Sequence record: MN850574.1 | DNA length: 64,000 bases | Source: Escherichia phage kaaroe | Strand: one strand, 5' to 3' | Shown here: piece after piece, positions 3,091 through 46,042 of the stretch | How positions within the stretch are numbered: the first letter of the stretch is position 1 | Layout of the letters: the number at the start of each line of letters is the position of its first letter | Position numbers and translations under genes: made by a program | Notes under the pieces: generated by a model | What the model saw: the letters and a program-made list of their open reading frames with translations, nothing else | The model's database searches: none | What the model was told of the DNA's origin: nothing

Positions 3091-3372
3091 ATGGTAGAAA
3101 TTTTTGGTTTTGAAGGTTACAACTGTAAGTATTGCCAGAATGCAAAGCGCCTTTGTGAAGCGCGTAAGATCCCTTACATCTACATTCCGGTTAATGATGG
3201 TGTGGACGAAAACGGTCGCCCGGTAAAGATTGATTCTATCATTGCCGATATTCAGGATCGCGCAGGGGTAGAAGTTATTGCCACCATGCCGCAGATTTTC
3301 TATGATGGTGATTATATCGGTGGCTTTGATGAGTTCCGATCCTTTGTAGTCAAAAACAAGATTAATGGTTAA
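3091..3372 (+). CDS. nrdC: thioredoxin/glutaredoxin-like protein NrdC
   Basis: CKYC redox motif, MPQIFYDGDYIGGFDEF tail similar to recalled T4 NrdC; ATG 3091 after GAGG. Confidence 0.7.
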   Translation: MVEIFGFEGYNCKYCQNAKRLCEARKIPYIYIPVNDGVDENGRPVKIDSIIADIQDRAGVEVIATMPQIFYDGDYIGGFDEFRSFVVKNKING

Positions 3373-3396
3373 ATACCTTCTTTGGAGGGTGAATTT

Positions 3397-3870
3397 ATGT
3401 TACTGACTGCTAAGAGTGCTAAAGAGTACAAACAAGAACTATTCGAAAAACAGGGGGGCATTTGCCCCCTTTGTCAATTGCCACTTTTTGAGGATATGAG
3501 CAAAAACCATCTTGACCACGACCACGATCTAGATGGGAAAGGGCAAGGCCGCGTAAGGGGATTGCTTCATTCGTGTTGCAACCGCCTAGAAGGATCGTTG
3601 ACCGGAGACTTTAAACGGTTTGGTGTTGGTGCTTTAGGTGCTGATTTCGTTGTTTGGGCTACAAACTATGTTAATTACATCAAAGGAGACTACACCAACA
3701 ATCATTTACATCCTCAATATGCTGTTGATAAAGTAAAACGATTTTCACGCTTGACACGCGCGGAGATGGTTGATATTATGGACGCAGAAGGTTTCGATTA
3801 CTGCGACGCTGATACAAGAGAAGAGATCACGAAGAAGTATAAGAAACAATTTATACAAAGATTAAGATAG
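3397..3870 (+). CDS. 49: endonuclease VII (Holliday junction resolvase) gp49
   Basis: MLLTAK..CPLCQ..HLDHDH..RGLLHSCCN matches recalled T4 gp49 zinc-binding/H-N-H region. Confidence 0.85.
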   Translation: MLLTAKSAKEYKQELFEKQGGICPLCQLPLFEDMSKNHLDHDHDLDGKGQGRVRGLLHSCCNRLEGSLTGDFKRFGVGALGADFVVWATNYVNYIKGDYTNNHLHPQYAVDKVKRFSRLTRAEMVDIMDAEGFDYCDADTREEITKKYKKQFIQRLR

Positions 3871-37416: not shown

Positions 37417-39240
37417 ATGAGTGAGTTTCGCATTTTATCTGATCGTGAACATGTCCTTAAGCGTGCAGGAATGTATATAGGATCAACAACTTACGAAGAA
37501 CATCAACGTTTCCTGTTCGGTAAATGGACAAAAATTTCATACGTTCCTGGACTGGTTAAAATCATTGATGAGATCATCGACAACTCTGTAGACGAGGCGA
37601 TCCGCACTAACTTTGAATTTGCCAATGTGATTAGCGTCGATATCCAAAACAATATTGTTACTGTAACAGACAATGGTCGCGGTATTCCTCAACATATGGT
37701 TACTACCCCAGAGGGTACGCAGATTCCGCAACCTGTCGCCGCATGGACACGAACAAAAGCAGGGTCTAACTTTGATGATACCAATCGATTAACGCAAGGG
37801 ATGAACGGTGTGGGGTCGTCGTTGTCAAATTTCTTTAGCGATTGGTTTACTGGTGTGACCTGTGACGGCGAAACAGAAATGACCGTTCAATGTACAAACG
37901 GTGCTGAAAATATCACATGGTCATCGAAACCATCAAAATTGAAGGGAACAAAGGTTACATTTTGCCCAGACTTCGACCACTTCGAAGGTTATATGATGGG
38001 CAACTCTGTTTTAGATATTGTTCATGATCGTCTGCAATCATTGAGCGTAATATTTCCTAAGATCACGTTTAAGTTTAATGGTAAACGTATTGTTAGTAAG
38101 TTCAAGGATTATGCTAAACTATACAATGATGATCCGTTTGTCATTGAAGATAAAAACTTTTCACTTGCCCTAGTTCCTGCGGTCGAGGGAGAAGGTTTTA
38201 AATCAGTATCCTTTGCTAATGGTCTGTTTACCAAAAACGGGGGAACACACGTTGATTATGTGACAGATGATCTTTGTGAAGAGATTGTAAAACGAATCAA
38301 GAAAGAATATAAGGTTGATGTTACTAAAGCTGCGGTTAAGTCTGGATTGACCTGTATTCTTATTGTTCGTGAATTGCCTAACCTTCGTTTTGATTCACAG
38401 ACAAAAGAACGATTGACTAATCCAACTGGTGATATCAAGCGTCATATTGATCTTGATTTTAAAAAGCTGGCTAAAGTCATTGCTAAGAAAGAAAACATTA
38501 TCATGCCTATTATTGCTGTAGTCCTGGCACGCAAAGAGGCAGCAGATAAAGCGGCAGCGACTAAGGCAGCAAAGGCAGCGAAACGGGCTAAGGTGGCAAA
38601 ACACGTTAAAGCTAACCTTATTGGAACTGACGCAGAAACTACCCTGTTTTTGACGGAAGGTGATTCCGCGATCAACTATCTGATCTCTGTACGTGATCAA
38701 GATTTACATGGAGGTTTCCCGTTGCGAGGCAAAACTCTTACAACGTGGGAACAACCGGAGGCAAAGATCGTTAAGAACGCCGAAATTTTTAACATCATGG
38801 CGATCACTGGCTTGCAATTTGGTGTTGATGCATTGGAAGTTATGCAATACAAAAATATTGCGATTATGACCGACGCTGATACTGACGGGATCGGGTCTAT
38901 TAAACCTAGTCTGATCTCTTTCTTTGCACGTTGGCCTGAATTGTTCGAAGATGGACGAATCCGGTTTATCAAAACACCTATTATCATTGCGGAACCAAAG
39001 AAAGGTGATGATGTTCGATGGTATTATGACCTAGAAGATTTCGAGAACGACCGAGATAATATCAAAGGTTACAACATTCGATATATCAAAGGTTTAGCAT
39101 CGCTCACAGAATCAGACTATCATCGCGTGATCAACGATCCTGTCATGGAGATCATCACGTTACCGGAAAACTATAAAGAGCTATTCGATTTGCTCTATAG
39201 TGAAGATGCAGATCAGCGCAAAATTTGGATGCAATCATAA
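37417..39240 (+). CDS. 39: topoisomerase II large (GyrB-like ATPase) subunit gp39, unsplit
   Basis: RPGMYIGS-like N-terminus, GHKL ATPase motifs (DNGRGIP), TOPRIM region; continuous 607-aa ORF. Confidence 0.9.
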   Translation: MSEFRILSDREHVLKRAGMYIGSTTYEEHQRFLFGKWTKISYVPGLVKIIDEIIDNSVDEAIRTNFEFANVISVDIQNNIVTVTDNGRGIPQHMVTTPEGTQIPQPVAAWTRTKAGSNFDDTNRLTQGMNGVGSSLSNFFSDWFTGVTCDGETEMTVQCTNGAENITWSSKPSKLKGTKVTFCPDFDHFEGYMMGNSVLDIVHDRLQSLSVIFPKITFKFNGKRIVSKFKDYAKLYNDDPFVIEDKNFSLALVPAVEGEGFKSVSFANGLFTKNGGTHVDYVTDDLCEEIVKRIKKEYKVDVTKAAVKSGLTCILIVRELPNLRFDSQTKERLTNPTGDIKRHIDLDFKKLAKVIAKKENIIMPIIAVVLARKEAADKAAATKAAKAAKRAKVAKHVKANLIGTDAETTLFLTEGDSAINYLISVRDQDLHGGFPLRGKTLTTWEQPEAKIVKNAEIFNIMAITGLQFGVDALEVMQYKNIAIMTDADTDGIGSIKPSLISFFARWPELFEDGRIRFIKTPIIIAEPKKGDDVRWYYDLEDFENDRDNIKGYNIRYIKGLASLTESDYHRVINDPVMEIITLPENYKELFDLLYSEDADQRKIWMQS

Positions 39241-39244
39241 CACT

Positions 39245-39280
39245 TGACATACAAGGGAGATTCTCTATAATGGGAGTCTC
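39245..39280 (+). promoter_or_regulatory. early promoter within GGGAGA/TCTCCC hairpin followed by T-run
   Basis: TTGACA 39245-39250, TATAAT 39266-39271; arms GGGAGA 39255-39260 and TCTCCC 39277-39282 then TTTTCTTTT. Confidence 0.5.
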
Positions 39281-39305
39281 CCTTTTCTTTTATGAGGATT
39301 TAACG

Positions 39306-40336: not shown

Positions 40337-42445
40337 ATGAAAATGCATATTGATAATGAAGAAGTATTTGGCAGTGACTTGAGCGGTGCGGTTGATTTTT
40401 CACTGAAAGCAAGTAGCAAGGCTTTTATGGTGCTTTCTAAGAACACTTATCAATATTGTGAACGTGCTTGCGTCCGTGAGTATTCGTGCAATGCTACCGA
40501 CACTCACAAAGAAGCCGGAACCTTAGATCGTCCGTTTGATATTCATTTACCGACTGCAATCGAACCGTATTTTTCTGTGCGTGATTATGGTACTGGTATT
40601 CCGTCTAAGAAAGAATTAGAACAACTGTTTACGGTTTACTTTGAATCAACAAAAGACCAGACTAATGATTATATCGGATCTTTTGGTTTAGGTGCGAAAT
40701 CTGCTTATAGCTATACCGACACCTTTACAATCGTAAACTATTACAATGGTCGCGCTTATGGCTTTACGGCATTTGTGCAAAACTCTATGCCGAAAATGGT
40801 GCAGATTTTCGACGAACCGACCTATGAAGACAACGGTCTGAAAATCACTATTCCGGTGAAAGAAAAAGACATTCAGACATGGCATCGAGAAGCGCAATTT
40901 GTACTGCGTCATTTTGGGGAACACAAACCTAATATCAATGCAATCGAAATTAATTATTTCCCTAGCTTTGATAATTATTATGTGTGTAATGGGCGTGATA
41001 ACGATTCCTATGTAGTATATGCAATCATGGGTAAGATCCAGTATCCGATCCCGTATGAATATGTTCGCGGAACATGGTTAGAAGCTGTAAACCGCCAGCA
41101 CCAGACCATTTACATTAATTTTGAGTTGGGTGATCTGGACCTTATGCCATCGCGTGAAGAAGTTCACTTGTCAATTGAGACTAAAGCGAACATCGAAAAA
41201 CGCATTGCAGAAATCAATGAAATGATGTTGGAAAAGGTTAAAGAAAAGATCGCCAACATTAAAACAGAGCGTAAACTTGCGCAATTTATGAGCGAGTATT
41301 CATCGACTCAACGCAATATTATTAGCAAGATGGGTAAGATCGGACAATGGGACGATCCGGTAGCAATCTATAATAAGTTTGTTAATGCGGGTAAAGATTC
41401 GCCTAATGACGTAGAAGGTCAGGTGTATACTCTGTATCGTACTCGTCACACAATAAGTAAATTGCGCCCTGCTTTCGTTAGCAGTCAATACAACATTACG
41501 CATTTTGTATGGATGCATAAAGAAGATATTACGTGTCTTATTGATGATACCGATAAACCGAAACTGCGTGCACTGACTCTTAACGGCATGGTCCAGGAAT
41601 ACGGCATCAATAAAAAGGTACTGGTGTTCCGTCAGAAAAACGAAAAACATATGGAGACTTTCGAGTACATCAAACAGTATTATGATGATTCTGAAATGAC
41701 CGTGATTAAAGTGTCTGAGGCCGATGATCTGCGTGCTAAAGCAGTTAAACCGGAGAAGACCGAGCGTACACAACGTGAAGCGACTCCTAAGCTGCCTAAC
41801 GTGTATATCATGGAAAAGATTGGTGACAGTTGGCATAAAACCAGCCATCACATGAAAGCGGCAGAGATTCGCGAGTTATCAGGCTTGCACATGTTCCGCG
41901 TAGGTGATGCATTCGAAAGCCGTAGTCGTAAATCGATCCATAGTGAAAATACATTACACACGGCGCTTGACTACTTCGGGGTAACAAAGTATATTATTAC
42001 TCGAAACGAGACACAAAAATATCTCGTTGACGAACAATTGGAATGTGCGCTAGAATTTGTTCGCGGTAAGCTGGCTGGTCTGGCTAAGAAGGTTAAGACC
42101 AATCATCTGGGGTATGGCGAATATCTGGGTGTGATCACTATGTTGTTTCATGACGATGAACTAGAACGCTGTGTTCCAGAATTTATTGACAGACTGTACG
42201 GTCGTCATTATAATAAAGAGGTTTCCAAGTTACTCCTTCGTACTCGTTGGATTATGGACGCAGAAACTAAAAAGATTTGTGATGAAAAATTCACGGTAGC
42301 AAACGAACGAATTAAAGCAGTTTGTGCGAAGTTTAAAGAGAATAGCCCGTTACTGTATGATATTGTAGATAACTGGTATCGTATTCTGCATAATGACAAA
42401 CGCGCACAAGACTTTATGAAACTGGTTAAGAATGTTAAATTTTAA
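40337..42445 (+). CDS. rIIA: rIIA protein (membrane-associated, GHKL-type ATPase-like domain)
   Basis: SKAFMVLSKN..YQ, LPTA..SVRDYGTGIP, GSFGLGAKSAYSYTDTF and GLKITIPV colinear with recalled T4 rIIA. Confidence 0.9.
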   Translation: MKMHIDNEEVFGSDLSGAVDFSLKASSKAFMVLSKNTYQYCERACVREYSCNATDTHKEAGTLDRPFDIHLPTAIEPYFSVRDYGTGIPSKKELEQLFTVYFESTKDQTNDYIGSFGLGAKSAYSYTDTFTIVNYYNGRAYGFTAFVQNSMPKMVQIFDEPTYEDNGLKITIPVKEKDIQTWHREAQFVLRHFGEHKPNINAIEINYFPSFDNYYVCNGRDNDSYVVYAIMGKIQYPIPYEYVRGTWLEAVNRQHQTIYINFELGDLDLMPSREEVHLSIETKANIEKRIAEINEMMLEKVKEKIANIKTERKLAQFMSEYSSTQRNIISKMGKIGQWDDPVAIYNKFVNAGKDSPNDVEGQVYTLYRTRHTISKLRPAFVSSQYNITHFVWMHKEDITCLIDDTDKPKLRALTLNGMVQEYGINKKVLVFRQKNEKHMETFEYIKQYYDDSEMTVIKVSEADDLRAKAVKPEKTERTQREATPKLPNVYIMEKIGDSWHKTSHHMKAAEIRELSGLHMFRVGDAFESRSRKSIHSENTLHTALDYFGVTKYIITRNETQKYLVDEQLECALEFVRGKLAGLAKKVKTNHLGYGEYLGVITMLFHDDELERCVPEFIDRLYGRHYNKEVSKLLLRTRWIMDAETKKICDEKFTVANERIKAVCAKFKENSPLLYDIVDNWYRILHNDKRAQDFMKLVKNVKF

Positions 42446-42456
42446 GAGGTGATATT

Positions 42457-42588
42457 ATGACTAAACTGACCGCTATCCAGAAAGAAACCATCCGTAAACA
42501 ATACGCTCGCGGCTTGACTAAAGGCGAACTGGCACGAATCTATAATGTATCAGACCGCACAATCCGCAAGGTTGTCGAAGCAAAATAA
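42457..42588 (+). CDS. small HTH protein resembling the N-terminal domain of T4 rIIB (43 aa)
   Basis: Unlisted ORF with GAGGTG RBS; LTKGELARIYNVSDRTIRKVVEAK parallels recalled T4 rIIB residues about 25-50. Confidence 0.45.
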   Translation: MTKLTAIQKETIRKQYARGLTKGELARIYNVSDRTIRKVVEAK

Positions 42589-42591
42589 TTC

Positions 42592-42628
42592 TGGTATAAT
42601 GATGTGAATCGGGCGGCGATAGTCGCCC
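42592..42628 (+). promoter_or_regulatory. extended -10 promoter-like element followed by hairpin
   Basis: TGgTATAAT at 42592-42600, no clear -35; GGGCG/CGCCC hairpin 42611-42628. Confidence 0.35.
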
Positions 42629-42650
42629 AACTAATAGAGGAATGAATACT

Positions 42651-43643
42651 ATGACTAAAGCAAAAATCACCGTCTCTGACCGTAACGTTCAATGCCTGGA
42701 TTCTGAAAAACAAATCAAACTGGCTAAACAGTGGGGCGAAGGTAAGTTTACTACCCGCGAAGCACTTGCGGCAGCATTTGGGGTATCTCGTCGTACTGCC
42801 TCCCGTGTATTACTGATTCAGAAAGACGCAGTAGCGGAAGGTCGCAAGGCACTAGAAAAACGTAAAGCACGCCGTAAAACCAGTAAAGGAAAAGGCGGTG
42901 AACGCGCAAAAAAGCCCGTGACTACTTCCTCAAAAATCGTAGCAATAGCCTCAACTAAGTTTATTACTATTACATGTGGTGACATTGTTTATACTGCTGA
43001 TCCATCGCATGTTAACTTTAATGAAGCACTGGAAGCGATTAAACATAATGATTTCATCAAAGCTATTACGCTGATTGACATTAAGAAAGCGGTTGAAGTA
43101 TATTATCACGGCGCTTTCCGTATCGAAAATGGTATTGTGTATTATCATAATATTGTTCTTGATAATAATCTGACTCGTCGAGTTGTGGAGTCGATTAAAG
43201 AGAATAAGCCATATACGCACTATCTGAACTTCTTTGAGAAGTGCAAGAAGAATCCTAGCCGTAAGGCGGTAGATCGTCTGTTTGACTTCTTAGAGCACAA
43301 CGACATTGAGATCGGGGAAGATGGTTGTTTCTATGCATGGAAACGTGTTGATGTTGATTATAAAGATTTCTTTACGCATACGTTTGATAATAGCCCAGGG
43401 CGCACGGTTAAAATGAAGCGTAAAGACGTGGACCCAGATGATGATCGCACTTGCTCTAATGGCCTCCACGTTGCAGCGAAACACTATATTCCTCACTATG
43501 GCGGTGGACGAGGCCGAATCATTAAATGCAAAGTTGATCCGCGTCACGTTGTAAGTATCCCGAAAGATTATGCGAATGCCAAAATGCGCTGCCATCGTTA
43601 CTATGTGGTTGAAGATGTAACCGAAGGTTTTAGCCATTACTAA
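42651..43643 (+). CDS. rIIB: rIIB protein
   Basis: C-terminal FYAWKRV..TFDNSPGRTVKM..DDDRTCSNGLHV..DPRHVVSIP..AKMRC..YVVEDVTE colinear with recalled T4 rIIB. Confidence 0.85.
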   Translation: MTKAKITVSDRNVQCLDSEKQIKLAKQWGEGKFTTREALAAAFGVSRRTASRVLLIQKDAVAEGRKALEKRKARRKTSKGKGGERAKKPVTTSSKIVAIASTKFITITCGDIVYTADPSHVNFNEALEAIKHNDFIKAITLIDIKKAVEVYYHGAFRIENGIVYYHNIVLDNNLTRRVVESIKENKPYTHYLNFFEKCKKNPSRKAVDRLFDFLEHNDIEIGEDGCFYAWKRVDVDYKDFFTHTFDNSPGRTVKMKRKDVDPDDDRTCSNGLHVAAKHYIPHYGGGRGRIIKCKVDPRHVVSIPKDYANAKMRCHRYYVVEDVTEGFSHY

Positions 43644-43657
43644 CAGAGGAATTAATT

Positions 43658-43984
43658 ATGGTTGATATGAAAGTTACTTGCGAAAGTGCACATGTTGAAG
43701 TTGAAAGTAGCCAATATTCATTGCGTCCGTCCGGTCGCGTTACTGTGACTATGGATGATGTTGATTTGGTTAATAATGTTAGTGTTGAAGATATCGTTAA
43801 TGAGTATGATCATAGCGAACTACTAGACGCAATTCCTGAACATGTTGTGATCCAGCACGTAGTAAGCAATAATGATCCATCGACTTTCATTAAAGAATAT
43901 GGCGCTGATGAAATGCTCGATGAAATTGGCGAAAAGATTGTTATTGCATGGCTTGAAAACAACGGTTATACTGTAGAACAATAA
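43658..43984 (+). CDS. hypothetical acidic protein
   Basis: ORF with GAGG RBS. Confidence 0.45.
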   Translation: MVDMKVTCESAHVEVESSQYSLRPSGRVTVTMDDVDLVNNVSVEDIVNEYDHSELLDAIPEHVVIQHVVSNNDPSTFIKEYGADEMLDEIGEKIVIAWLENNGYTVEQ

Positions 43985-43993
43985 TCAACATAG

Positions 43994-44016
43994 GCCGCTT
44001 TGCGCGGCCTTTCTTA
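43994..44016 (+). terminator. intrinsic terminator
   Basis: GGCCGCtttgcGCGGCC followed by TTTCTT. Confidence 0.5.
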
Positions 44017-44325: not shown

Positions 44326-44688
44326 ATGCTAGGTCATTCTAAAATAGAAGATTGCTCATTCAGAGCAATGAAAGATGATTTTTCGGTCCTGTACGCGTCT
44401 ATCCGAGAGTTGTTTGTAGATTTTAAGCAATTCAGAGAATACAAAGGCGTTAAGATGCGGGAGTGGGTATTCTGGCCTTTCTATATCATTACTCTGTTTT
44501 CTATGGTATTTTGTTTTGTCGGGATCACTATCGCTAGTTTTGTCACTTGCGTTTTCCTGATTATCAGGTGTATCATGTTTGCTTTGATTGCTGCCCCGTT
44601 TATTGTGTCAATCCTTCCGTTAAAATGGCTATTGGATTGGGCTGATAAATCTGATAAAGTAAAGAATGTGATTTGTAAGCGTGTATGA
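44326..44688 (+). CDS. hypothetical membrane protein
   Basis: Two long hydrophobic segments (FYIITLFSMVFCFVGITIASFV, IMFALIAAPFIVSIL). Confidence 0.45.
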   Translation: MLGHSKIEDCSFRAMKDDFSVLYASIRELFVDFKQFREYKGVKMREWVFWPFYIITLFSMVFCFVGITIASFVTCVFLIIRCIMFALIAAPFIVSILPLKWLLDWADKSDKVKNVICKRV

Positions 44689-44695
44689 GGTGAAG

Positions 44696-46042
44696 ATGAA
44701 TAAATCAGTTACTTACCGCAGCCTTGAAAGCATTGTACATAATGAAGCTAAGGAATATGCGATCTATTCTGCCGAGGAACGCGGGATTCCTCAATTAGTG
44801 GATGGGCTTAAACCAGTGCAACGCTTTGTTATGGAGTGCGCACTTCAAAAGAGTAAAGGTGACCGTAAGAAATTCCGTAAGATGGCAGATATTGGATCTG
44901 GTGTTGCTGAGTTGGGGTATCACCACGGCGAAACTAATGCCGTAGAAGCCGGATCACTCATGGCGAATACATGGAGCAATAATACTCCACTGCTTGACGG
45001 TCAAGGTAACTTCGGATCGCGTTTAGTCCAGAAAGCAGGTGCGGCACGTTATATCTTTGCTCGCGTGCATGAAAACTTCTTTAAAATCTATAAAGATATG
45101 AATTGCGCACCTAAGCACGAAGATCTGGAACACATCCCGCCAGCGTTCTACTTGCCAGTTGTGCCAATGGTATTGGCTAACGGTATTAGTGGTATTGCTA
45201 CAGGGTATAAAACTGACATTTTACCGCATTCACTGGAAAGCCTTATTGAATGCACAGAGCTAGCACTTGCCGGAAAACTGGATAAAGAACCTAGTGTTCA
45301 ATTCCCGAAATTCACGGGTAAAGTTATCCCGCGAGATGATCGCGATGGTGTGATTCTTGAGGGTACATATGAACTAAACGGCAAGACTAAACTGACAATA
45401 TCAGAAGTTCCTTATAAGTTCGACCGTGAAGAATATGTAGCGGTACTGGATGCACTGGAAGAAAAAGATCTGATTGTATCGTATAATGACCGTTGCTCTA
45501 AGGACGGATTCAGATTTGAAGTAACACTGAAACGCGATTATTTCAAAAGCGAAGATGAATCCGCTCGACATGAGCAAATCATGAAGGATTTTAAACTAAC
45601 GCAGTTAGTAGCCCAGAATATCGTAGTAGTTAACGAACGTGGTTTAGTAGAAGTATTCGAGAAAGCGAGCGATCTGATCCGTCGATTCGTCGAAATCCGA
45701 TTAGGGTATGTCGATAAACGCATTGAATTGATGCAAGCGGAAACGCTGGAAGCATACAATTATGCAATGGCTAAAGCCGAATTTATCGATCGCGTAATTA
45801 AGGGCGAAATCGAGCTACAGGGCAAGAAAAAGGCCGAGGTAATGCAATCCATCAATGGACATGAAAAACTGCGTCCATACGCCGATAAGCTAGTTTCTAT
45901 GCCATTGTATAGCGTTACTCAAGAAGAGTATGATCGACTGGTCAAAGATGCCGATAAACATCATAGTGAATATGAGTATTGGACAAAGACGACCGCAATG
46001 AAGGAATATAAGAAAGATCTTAAAGAACTTAAGAAGGGTTGA
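44696..46042 (+). CDS. 52: topoisomerase II medium (GyrA-like) subunit gp52
   Basis: DGLKPVQRFV motif and breakage-reunion region; position after the rIIB region. Confidence 0.9.
   Translation: MNKSVTYRSLESIVHNEAKEYAIYSAEERGIPQLVDGLKPVQRFVMECALQKSKGDRKKFRKMADIGSGVAELGYHHGETNAVEAGSLMANTWSNNTPLLDGQGNFGSRLVQKAGAARYIFARVHENFFKIYKDMNCAPKHEDLEHIPPAFYLPVVPMVLANGISGIATGYKTDILPHSLESLIECTELALAGKLDKEPSVQFPKFTGKVIPRDDRDGVILEGTYELNGKTKLTISEVPYKFDREEYVAVLDALEEKDLIVSYNDRCSKDGFRFEVTLKRDYFKSEDESARHEQIMKDFKLTQLVAQNIVVVNERGLVEVFEKASDLIRRFVEIRLGYVDKRIELMQAETLEAYNYAMAKAEFIDRVIKGEIELQGKKKAEVMQSINGHEKLRPYADKLVSMPLYSVTQEEYDRLVKDADKHHSEYEYWTKTTAMKEYKKDLKELKKG

Follow-up and report, generated by a model that had tools for sequence, protein, structure and literature searches.

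A small helix-turn-helix gene between rIIA and rIIB

The 64,000-nucleotide stretch of Escherichia phage kaaroe that we analysed (MN850574.1; hereafter the window) carries on its + strand, between rIIA and rIIB, a separate open reading frame (ORF) of 43 codons (42457-42588) whose product, MTKLTAIQKETIRKQYARGLTKGELARIYNVSDRTIRKVVEAK, is predicted to fold as a free-standing helix-turn-helix (HTH) domain. We consider it fairly probable that this small ORF descends from an old duplication of the HTH module of rIIB, one copy of which was kept as a separate, probably nucleic-acid-binding protein with a promoter and stem-loop cassette of the PeSL type behind it. The initial annotation of the region had proposed that a duplication or insertion had split off a DNA-binding module of rIIB. 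The shared module family and the paralogy are borne out by our data; a recent split is not, and rIIB keeps a full HTH. Despite the historical importance of the rII locus, what RIIB does at the molecular level is still not known (PMC2993671, PMC11879866).

The source phage is an RB49-like, T4-type coliphage of the genus Krischvirus, and a 3.4-kb stretch around the locus is 98-99% identical to Krischvirus genomes (58 records, among them vB_Eco_TB34, KFS-EC, RB49, phi1 and JSE). The small ORF is a homologue of RB49p274 and a member of phrog_15481, a family of unknown function; it had therefore been annotated before, as a hypothetical protein (RB49p274 in RB49, KNU01_gp160 in KFS-EC), and our literature search found no paper tying it to the HTH of rIIB. 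It lies 11 nt behind the stop codon of rIIA (40337..42445, + strand, 702 aa, annotated as RIIA in KFS-EC and RB49), a distance identical to the gap between rIIA and rIIB in T4, and is preceded by a strong Shine-Dalgarno (SD) sequence, GAGGTGA (42446..42452, + strand), with a comparable GAGGT/GGTGA element ahead of the small ORF in all lineages described below. Its stop codon (42586-42588) is followed by a 62-nt intergenic region and then by rIIB (42651..43643, + strand, 330 aa; phrog_609, E = 3e-106; annotated in RB49 and KFS-EC), which is in a different reading frame. Two in-frame ATGs are available to rIIB, and the second one, at 42651, is probably the start rather than 42642, because the RB49 and KFS-EC annotations agree on it and because it fits the position of the SD sequence AGAGGA (42636..42641, + strand), 9 nt ahead, a layout found alike in the metagenomic contig L007.

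Conservation and selection

The small ORF is intact in 58/58 Krischvirus records, with a product identity of at least 95%. Outside this genus no free small ORF was found among 50,697 GenBank phage records at E <= 0.01, only the 58 Krischvirus genomes giving a match. Relatives are present in metagenomes down to 69% identity, every one of them exactly 43 aa long. We fetched the contigs of these relatives and of the nearest rIIB homologues and found an HTH ORF of 43-46 aa between rIIA and rIIB in five divergent lineages (L004, L005/L006, L007/L008, L010 and L011); with the source phage, the position is identical in six lineages. Where complete, the rIIB proteins of these five lineages are 54%, 62%, 59% and 42% identical to that of the source phage, and the rIIB DNA of L011 has no match among the same 50,697 GenBank phage records. 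In L011 the HTH ORF (3361-3501, 46 aa) overlaps the rIIA stop (ATGA) and abuts rIIB through a TGATG stop/start overlap, leaving no intergenic region; rIIA, the HTH ORF and rIIB look translationally coupled there, with no PeSL between them.

Selection was assessed on the source phage and four of the lineages (L004, L005, L007 and L010). The small ORF showed a pN of 0.07-0.24 against a pS of 0.51-0.86, that is, with synonymous sites near saturation, and a dN/dS of 0.06-0.3 where measurable. In the same genome pairs its dN (0.08-0.28) was lower than that of rIIB (0.27-0.43), which was in turn lower than that of rIIA (0.52-0.80). An alignment of the small proteins from these genomes with the related sequences P0002 and P0003 has 27/43 invariant residues, and the segment TKGELARxYNVSDRTIRxVVE, covering helix 2, the turn and helix 3, is nearly invariant. 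Ranking the lineages by divergence of the small ORF gives nearly the same order as ranking them by divergence of rIIB. Judged from these patterns of conservation the small ORF is a real gene; it is of old date and has been passed down with rIIB.

The same data bear on the possibility that a sequencing error or a recent nonsense mutation split a single rIIB and left the small ORF as a decaying fragment. Nothing beyond the resemblance to rIIB N-termini speaks for such an artefact. Identical ORF boundaries recur in 58 independent genomes and in the five divergent lineages, with an SD sequence and start codon of their own and under purifying selection; the 62 nt between the two ORFs hold a promoter, a hairpin, an SD sequence and an ATG; the two frames differ; rIIB is complete with its own HTH; and the small ORF encodes the most conserved protein of the locus. 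The artificial stop that had been named as a possible refutation is excluded on these grounds, and we regard the chance that the small ORF is a pseudogene as negligible.

Two diverged rIIB-type modules

Similarity to the N-terminus of T4 rIIB had been claimed for the small ORF, and it is clear: a local alignment with T4 rIIB residues 7-45 scores 47 (z = 6.4), which 0/500 shuffles reach. That the small ORF would be closer to it than the long rIIB ORF is true in one respect only. Against T4 itself the long ORF does better (score 69, z = 10.8, with NVQCL pairing with NIKCL at the start of the HTH). Against a profile that represents the first 55 residues of rIIBs from other lineages (117 sequences), the order is inverted: small ORFs score 45-55 bits (50 for the source phage) and the resident rIIB HTHs 24-27 bits (27 for the source phage). 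In pairwise comparisons with the same 117 rIIBs, the small ORF is ahead in 59 and the resident N-terminus in 54. Profile-profile comparison with hhalign relates the small ORFs to 30 diverse canonical rIIB N-termini with a probability of 99.1% (E = 1.5e-18), the rIIB N-termini of the clade to the canonical ones with 98.7% (E = 3.7e-16), and the small ORFs to the clade's own rIIB HTH with 95.3% (E = 2.4e-8). From these three comparisons we conclude that, at the level of sequence profiles, the small ORF and the resident rIIB HTH are both HTH modules of the rIIB type, by now divergent from one another.

Gene order agrees with this assignment. In tblastn searches with the small ORF outside Krischvirus the top matches are rIIB N-termini, within the first ~45 codons, and in T4, a Jiaodavirus, a Marfavirus, a Dhakavirus and Roth88 the HTH-bearing 5' end of rIIB comes directly after rIIA, with anything from a 14-nt gap to a 1-nt overlap. 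The small ORF hence sits in the canonical position of the rIIB HTH, and the single fused rIIB that had been suggested as a check on relatives is what these genomes have. The N-terminal HTH of T4-type RIIB (PF26926, Phage_T4_rIIB; phrog_609) and the small protein share the same three-helix HTH, the same slot directly after rIIA and the pattern L-x3-QK-x-I-x5-G-x2-K-x2-LA-x2-(F/Y)-x-VS-x-RTI-x-(R/K)-V. They differ in that the T4-type module is fused to the rIIB core, whereas the small protein stands alone, its 43 codons having an SD sequence and a stop of their own; moreover, helix 2, the turn and helix 3 are far more conserved in the small protein than in rIIB N-termini generally, and its cognate rIIB keeps another, diverged HTH.

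One can also suspect that the small ORF was never part of rIIB: a generic free-standing HTH regulator, coming for instance from a mobile element, could have landed between rIIA and rIIB, the likeness then reflecting a shared HTH superfamily. A profile search of 1.84 billion representative proteins gave 304 matches, mostly multi-HTH repeat proteins lacking an rIIB core, and their per-domain scores reach ~49 bits as compared to 33.5 bits for the best rIIB. Free-standing relatives of 49-53 aa with a VSDRTIRRVVE motif exist in non-rII contexts, and the Pfam and PHROG families matched by the small protein are generic HTH families. The capture scenario fares worse on other counts. The small ORF is placed and spaced just as the rIIB HTH is in other genera; the fit of the small ORF to the rIIB profile exceeds that of 146 of the 148 generic matches that scored on this profile, for which the median is 25 bits (only 2 reach 45 bits, and one of these has an rIIB core), and is about twice its fit to any Pfam or PHROG family; rIIB HTH modules multiply within the clade (three copies in L004); and the small ORF has been inherited together with rIIB. 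We therefore hold independent capture to be rather unlikely, the duplication of an rIIB module remaining our preferred reading.

Several of our own results nevertheless weigh against that preference. The sequence is not exclusive to rIIB, generic HTH repeats and free-standing small HTH genes in non-rII contexts being about as similar, and some generic HTHs also reach 40-50 bits on the rIIB N-terminal profile. A neighbour-joining tree of 64 modules (45 columns, 500 bootstraps) was unresolved, which also counts in favour of capture, and grouped the small ORFs with the rIIB HTHs of the clade in 0/500 replicates. No nucleotide trace of a duplication was found between the small ORF and the 5' end of rIIB, the alignment score of 18 being reached by 96/500 shuffles. 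The duplication scenario accordingly rests on profile fit, on synteny and on the multiplication of modules in the clade, not on a resolved tree, and the gene may have arisen by tandem duplication, by fission of a multi-HTH rIIB or by capture of a generic HTH.

Two minor observations belong here. The first 9 nt, ATGACTAAA (Met-Thr-Lys), are common to the small ORF (42457-42465) and rIIB (42651-42659), a coincidence that is not significant (96/500 shuffles). Two of the free-standing relatives, of 49-53 aa and with a VS(D/A)RTIRRV(V/I)E helix, are found on short contigs without rII genes (L018 1058-1219 and L019 914-1063), one of them near a gene for a LexA-like repressor.

rIIB keeps its own HTH module

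The long ORF had been credited with a diverged HTH-like segment of its own, FTTREALAAAFGVSRRTASRVL, and the AlphaFold model of rIIB (pLDDT 87) places this segment in helices 36-43 and 47-56 of a three-helix HTH. The protein opens with an N-terminal extension and continues with the HTH (residues ~12-56, nt ~42684-42818; about 18-56 in the model). Behind the HTH come a long helix (58-78), a basic linker predicted to be disordered (80-92) and finally a conserved core (96-330), for which, confidently predicted as it is, neither sequence nor Foldseek searches gave a meaningful match in the Protein Data Bank (PDB). Since this complete HTH-linker-core architecture is kept, the rIIB of this clade has, according to the model, not lost its DNA-binding module: the locus has one extra. 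The recognition helices of the two modules are different, SRRTASRVL in the fused HTH versus SDRTIRKVV in the free copy, and the fused helix FGVSRRTASRV is equally conserved in the source phage, L007 and L010. A simple fission of a one-HTH rIIB, in which the first residues of the RB49-type rIIB, KAKITVSDRNV, would be aligned with the post-HTH segment of T4, KRPKVTISGDITV, was considered and rejected, because NVQCL aligns with NIKCL and rIIB keeps a full HTH.

The number of modules in rIIB is not fixed. Among 122 rIIBs, 117 have one HTH, three have three in tandem and one, P0046, has none. The three-HTH proteins are P0009, from L004 (4685-6064), a contig that also has the free ORF, and P0077 and P0102, which are proteins of phiAS5-like Aeromonas phages. 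P0046 (L016 2607-3608) is an rIIB homologue with a different short N-terminal domain, MLHKFATRKIARTEAKRLGGKVKDLG..., in place of the HTH, and with no small ORF between rIIA and rIIB. Given rIIBs with one, three or no HTH, the module is evolutionarily mobile within rIIB. In classical T4 genetics, the start of the B cistron is reportedly dispensable for rIIB function (deletion r1589, Crick-Brenner frameshift region), which would fit an HTH that is accessory to rIIB and can be separated from it; our literature search found nothing usable in support of the dispensability of this N-terminal 'B1' segment of T4 rIIB (r1589). As a side observation, the representative search contained a 775-aa protein (P0186) that has two N-terminal rIIB-type HTHs, an uncharacterised middle region and an rIIB core (phmmer E = 1.5e-34).

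The small protein is predicted to be a free DNA-binding domain

The AlphaFold model of the 43-mer is a three-helix HTH (helices 6-18, 22-28 and 33-41) with a mean pLDDT of 90.7. Its best fold matches in the PDB, found with Foldseek, are DNA-binding HTH domains: IstA (TM 0.81, rmsd 1.0 Å), Hin (TM 0.83), gamma-delta resolvase and CENP-B (TM 0.78), with E-values that are weak, as expected at 43 residues. Pfam CENP-B_N (PF04218) is matched at 26.0 bits (gathering cut-off 21.2), which is a generic HTH assignment devoid of functional implication; the match to sigma-70 region 4 (PF04545, Sigma70_r4), at 21.1 bits, is under the gathering cut-off of 24.1, and NCBIfam gave weak generic HTH matches only. 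The protein is strongly basic (11 K/R vs 4 D/E, net charge about +7). The HTH domains of Hin and gamma-delta resolvase, of IstA from IS21 and of CENP-B resemble it in predicted fold (TM 0.78-0.83, rmsd 1.0-1.6 Å over 39-43 residues) but are tethered to a catalytic or a second DNA-binding domain, and their identity to the phage peptide is 20-28%. The DNA-binding domain of Hin binds DNA as an isolated peptide of ~52 residues. From the predicted structure we infer that the free small domain would likewise bind nucleic acid, most likely DNA and as a monomer.

A PeSL-type cassette lies between the small gene and rIIB

Two elements had been noticed between the ORFs, a TGnTATAAT motif and a GGGCG/CGCCC hairpin, and both are there. 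The first (TGgTATAAT, 42592-42600) is the extended -10 of a promoter-like sequence, TTGTCG-17-TGgTATAAT (42572..42600, + strand), which matches the consensus at 10/12 positions plus the TG; its -35 lies inside the 3' end of the small ORF, whose stop codon falls in the spacer. The GenBank record of GEC-3S independently annotates the same promoter, and a TG-extended -10 is also present in L004, L005 and L010. The second element, downstream of the -10, is the stem-loop GGGCGGC-GATA-GTCGCCC (42611-42628, + strand), with 7 bp that include one G-T and 6 GC pairs. It dominates the predicted fold of the intergenic RNA, and a comparable hairpin appears in 13/2000 shuffles of the intergenic region. Hairpins occupy the equivalent place in L004, L005, L007 and L010, so that all 5/5 lineages having an intergenic region, the source phage included, have a GC-rich one of 7-9 bp, with unrelated sequences (0-13 of 2000 shuffles comparable per lineage). 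In L005 and L010 a near-consensus promoter, TTGACA-17-TA(C/T)(A/T)AT, has its -10 in the hairpin loop. No known RNA family of Rfam was found in 42300-42800.

This arrangement is that of the PeSLs described in RB49 and phi1 by Arbiol et al. (2010), which consist of an intergenic sigma-70 consensus promoter and a stable stem-loop, often with G/C tracts, together with the SD sequence and ATG of the next gene; five placements of the stem-loop with respect to the promoter are described, one of them immediately downstream of the -10, and the cassettes tested (193/192, 206/205 and 211/210) were strong promoters and terminators (PMC2839356). The element at 42572-42641 has the same parts as the published cassettes (PMC2839356; Comeau et al. 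2014, PMC4122927), namely a sigma-70-type promoter, a G/C-tract stem-loop and an SD/ATG. The source phage represents the published subclass with the stem-loop downstream of the -10, and L005 and L010 the commonest one, with the stem-loop over the -10. Differences exist too: the -35 is imperfect (TTGTCG) and the promoter weaker than the consensus PeSL promoters; this -35 is inside the upstream ORF, whereas PeSLs have an AT-rich tract with the upstream gene's stop codon before the -35, as do L005 and L010; and the element is located within the conserved rII locus instead of a hyperplastic region of ORFans. This particular cassette is unmentioned in PMC2839356. A simple scan of the window found 14 promoter and stem-loop cassettes on the + strand and 0 on the - strand, with 0.55 expected in shuffles. 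These PeSL-like cassettes, all on the + strand, are located at 649, 3874, 4784, 6019, 8522, 9668, 26642, 27953, 29078, 39613, 40228, 42572, 46691 and 48289 (also 39244-39284); in several of them the -10 sits in the loop of a shared stem, GGGAGTA...TACTCCC.

The promoter and hairpin are thus a member of a known family, and they are not needed for separating the small ORF from rIIB, since in L011 the small ORF abuts rIIB with no intergenic element. Some features count against the part that we ascribe to the cassette. Its -35 matches at 4/6 positions, and the intergenic promoter is weak or absent in L007. The hairpin at 42611-42628 is followed by AACTAATAG and not by a U-tract; it is absent from the terminator scan and does not qualify as a Rho-independent terminator. 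A role as attenuator would be an extrapolation from one tested PeSL. Finally, with the -10 in the loop, the hairpins of L005 and L010 cannot be 5' elements of the rIIB mRNA, and a 5' stabiliser of this mRNA, which we had considered, is rejected as a general role for that reason.

Alternatively, the small HTH protein or the HTH of rIIB could use the inverted repeat as a DNA operator and so autoregulate the rIIB promoter. The HTH gene is immediately upstream, and the two arms of the repeat flank the -10 hexamer in L005 and L010, a classic repressor geometry. Yet the recognition helix is invariant while the repeats are wholly different between lineages (GGGCGGC, GCGCCTC, GTCCTGA, GCGCCC). Conserved pairing with a changing sequence suggests that the repeat acts as a structure, in RNA or in single-stranded DNA. 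A further 13 promoters of the window have stem-loops like it next to them, and PeSL stem-loops act as terminators (PMC2839356). All in all, an operator seems to us very improbable.

We give about as little credence, or slightly less, to the idea that only the act of translating the ORF counts, the ORF being a leader peptide or upstream ORF that modulates the downstream hairpin and the expression of rIIB, and that its product has no function. The ORF is short, precedes a conserved hairpin and rIIB, and is tightly coupled to rIIB in L011. However, purifying selection is strong on its amino-acid sequence and not just on its length (dN/dS as above), the fold is confidently predicted, 22 nt lie between the stop codon and the hairpin in the source phage, a distance that varies among lineages, and L011 has no hairpin at all.

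A second candidate promoter is found further upstream: a perfect sigma-70 consensus site, TTGACA-17-TATAAT (42186..42214, + strand), which precedes the small ORF by 271 nt and falls in the 3' end of rIIA; a transcript of the small ORF, possibly with rIIB, could start there. The site has near-consensus counterparts 223-235 nt before the small ORF in L007 (12/12), L010 (11/12) and L005 (10/12). In T4, rIIB has separate middle promoters within the 3' end of rIIA. What the two situations share is a promoter supply for rIIB that does not depend on rIIA and is located in the end of rIIA or immediately behind it; they differ in that the sites of the RB49-like phages are of the sigma-70 consensus or extended -10 type. 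Since RB49 lacks both motA and middle promoters (PMC1524935), a sigma-70-type promoter ahead of rIIB is the expected counterpart of the separate T4 promoters.

A model for the origin and role of the small gene

Putting these elements together, we propose a duplication of the HTH module in an ancestor shared by Krischvirus and its uncultured relatives. Of the two copies, one would have stayed at the ancestral slot behind rIIA, where it became or remained a separate cistron; the other would have stayed fused to the rIIB core through the flexible basic linker and acquired a different recognition helix. That this helix is different but equally conserved suggests that the duplication was followed by subfunctionalisation, as far as comparison of the sequences can tell. 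The free domain would serve the rII function in trans, binding in the manner of the HTHs of Hin, resolvase, IstA and CENP-B. The small gene would be made together with rIIA from upstream early promoters, including the one in the 3' end of rIIA; the stem-loop of the PeSL would then attenuate read-through and the sigma-70 extended -10 promoter restart transcription, giving rIIB an early expression of its own in a phage group that has no MotA-dependent middle promoters.

A more specific role is conceivable, in which the free HTH acts in trans as a 'micro-protein' that partners RIIB or competes with it; its invariant recognition helix would bind a conserved DNA or host target, and it would either supply an ancestral specificity that the fused HTH has lost or modulate RIIB. 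We regard this as quite a long shot. Were it true, the accessory N-terminal segment of RIIB would be a separable effector module, tunable by dosage. RIIB has been reported to trigger a bacterial gasdermin/CARD defence (bioRxiv 10.1101/2023.05.28.542683), and a speculative extension would have the free HTH tune how host systems sense RIIB; a still more speculative version would make it an early transcription factor in a phage group lacking MotA.

The results show the N-terminal HTH of rIIB to be a modular unit that can be absent, triplicated, or made as a separate protein more conserved than RIIA or RIIB. This modularity, and this conservation of the separate form, are what make the HTH a distinct functional unit. 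A peptide of 43 residues can be synthesised and is a tractable reagent for finding the DNA or the partner recognised by the rII system. A likely identity is given to a 'hypothetical' gene of about 58 phage genomes, and a PeSL is placed within a conserved locus. The small gene is otherwise a modest evolutionary curiosity and not a new system, and the current picture of the biology of T4-like phages is unchanged.

Neighbouring features

The neighbouring genes given here are on the + strand. The gp39 topoisomerase subunit gene (37417-39240) lies upstream of rIIA, and three small ORFs separate rIIB from gp52 (44681-46042). Pfam relates residues ~75-140 of rIIA weakly to ATPase domains of the GHKL type (the match to HATPase_c_3, E = 0.0036, misses the cut-off). 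Just past the ORF at 43658-43984, a GC-rich hairpin, GGCCGC...GCGGCC, is followed by TTTCTT (43992-44010), which makes it conventionally terminator-like, unlike the hairpin before rIIB with its lack of U residues.

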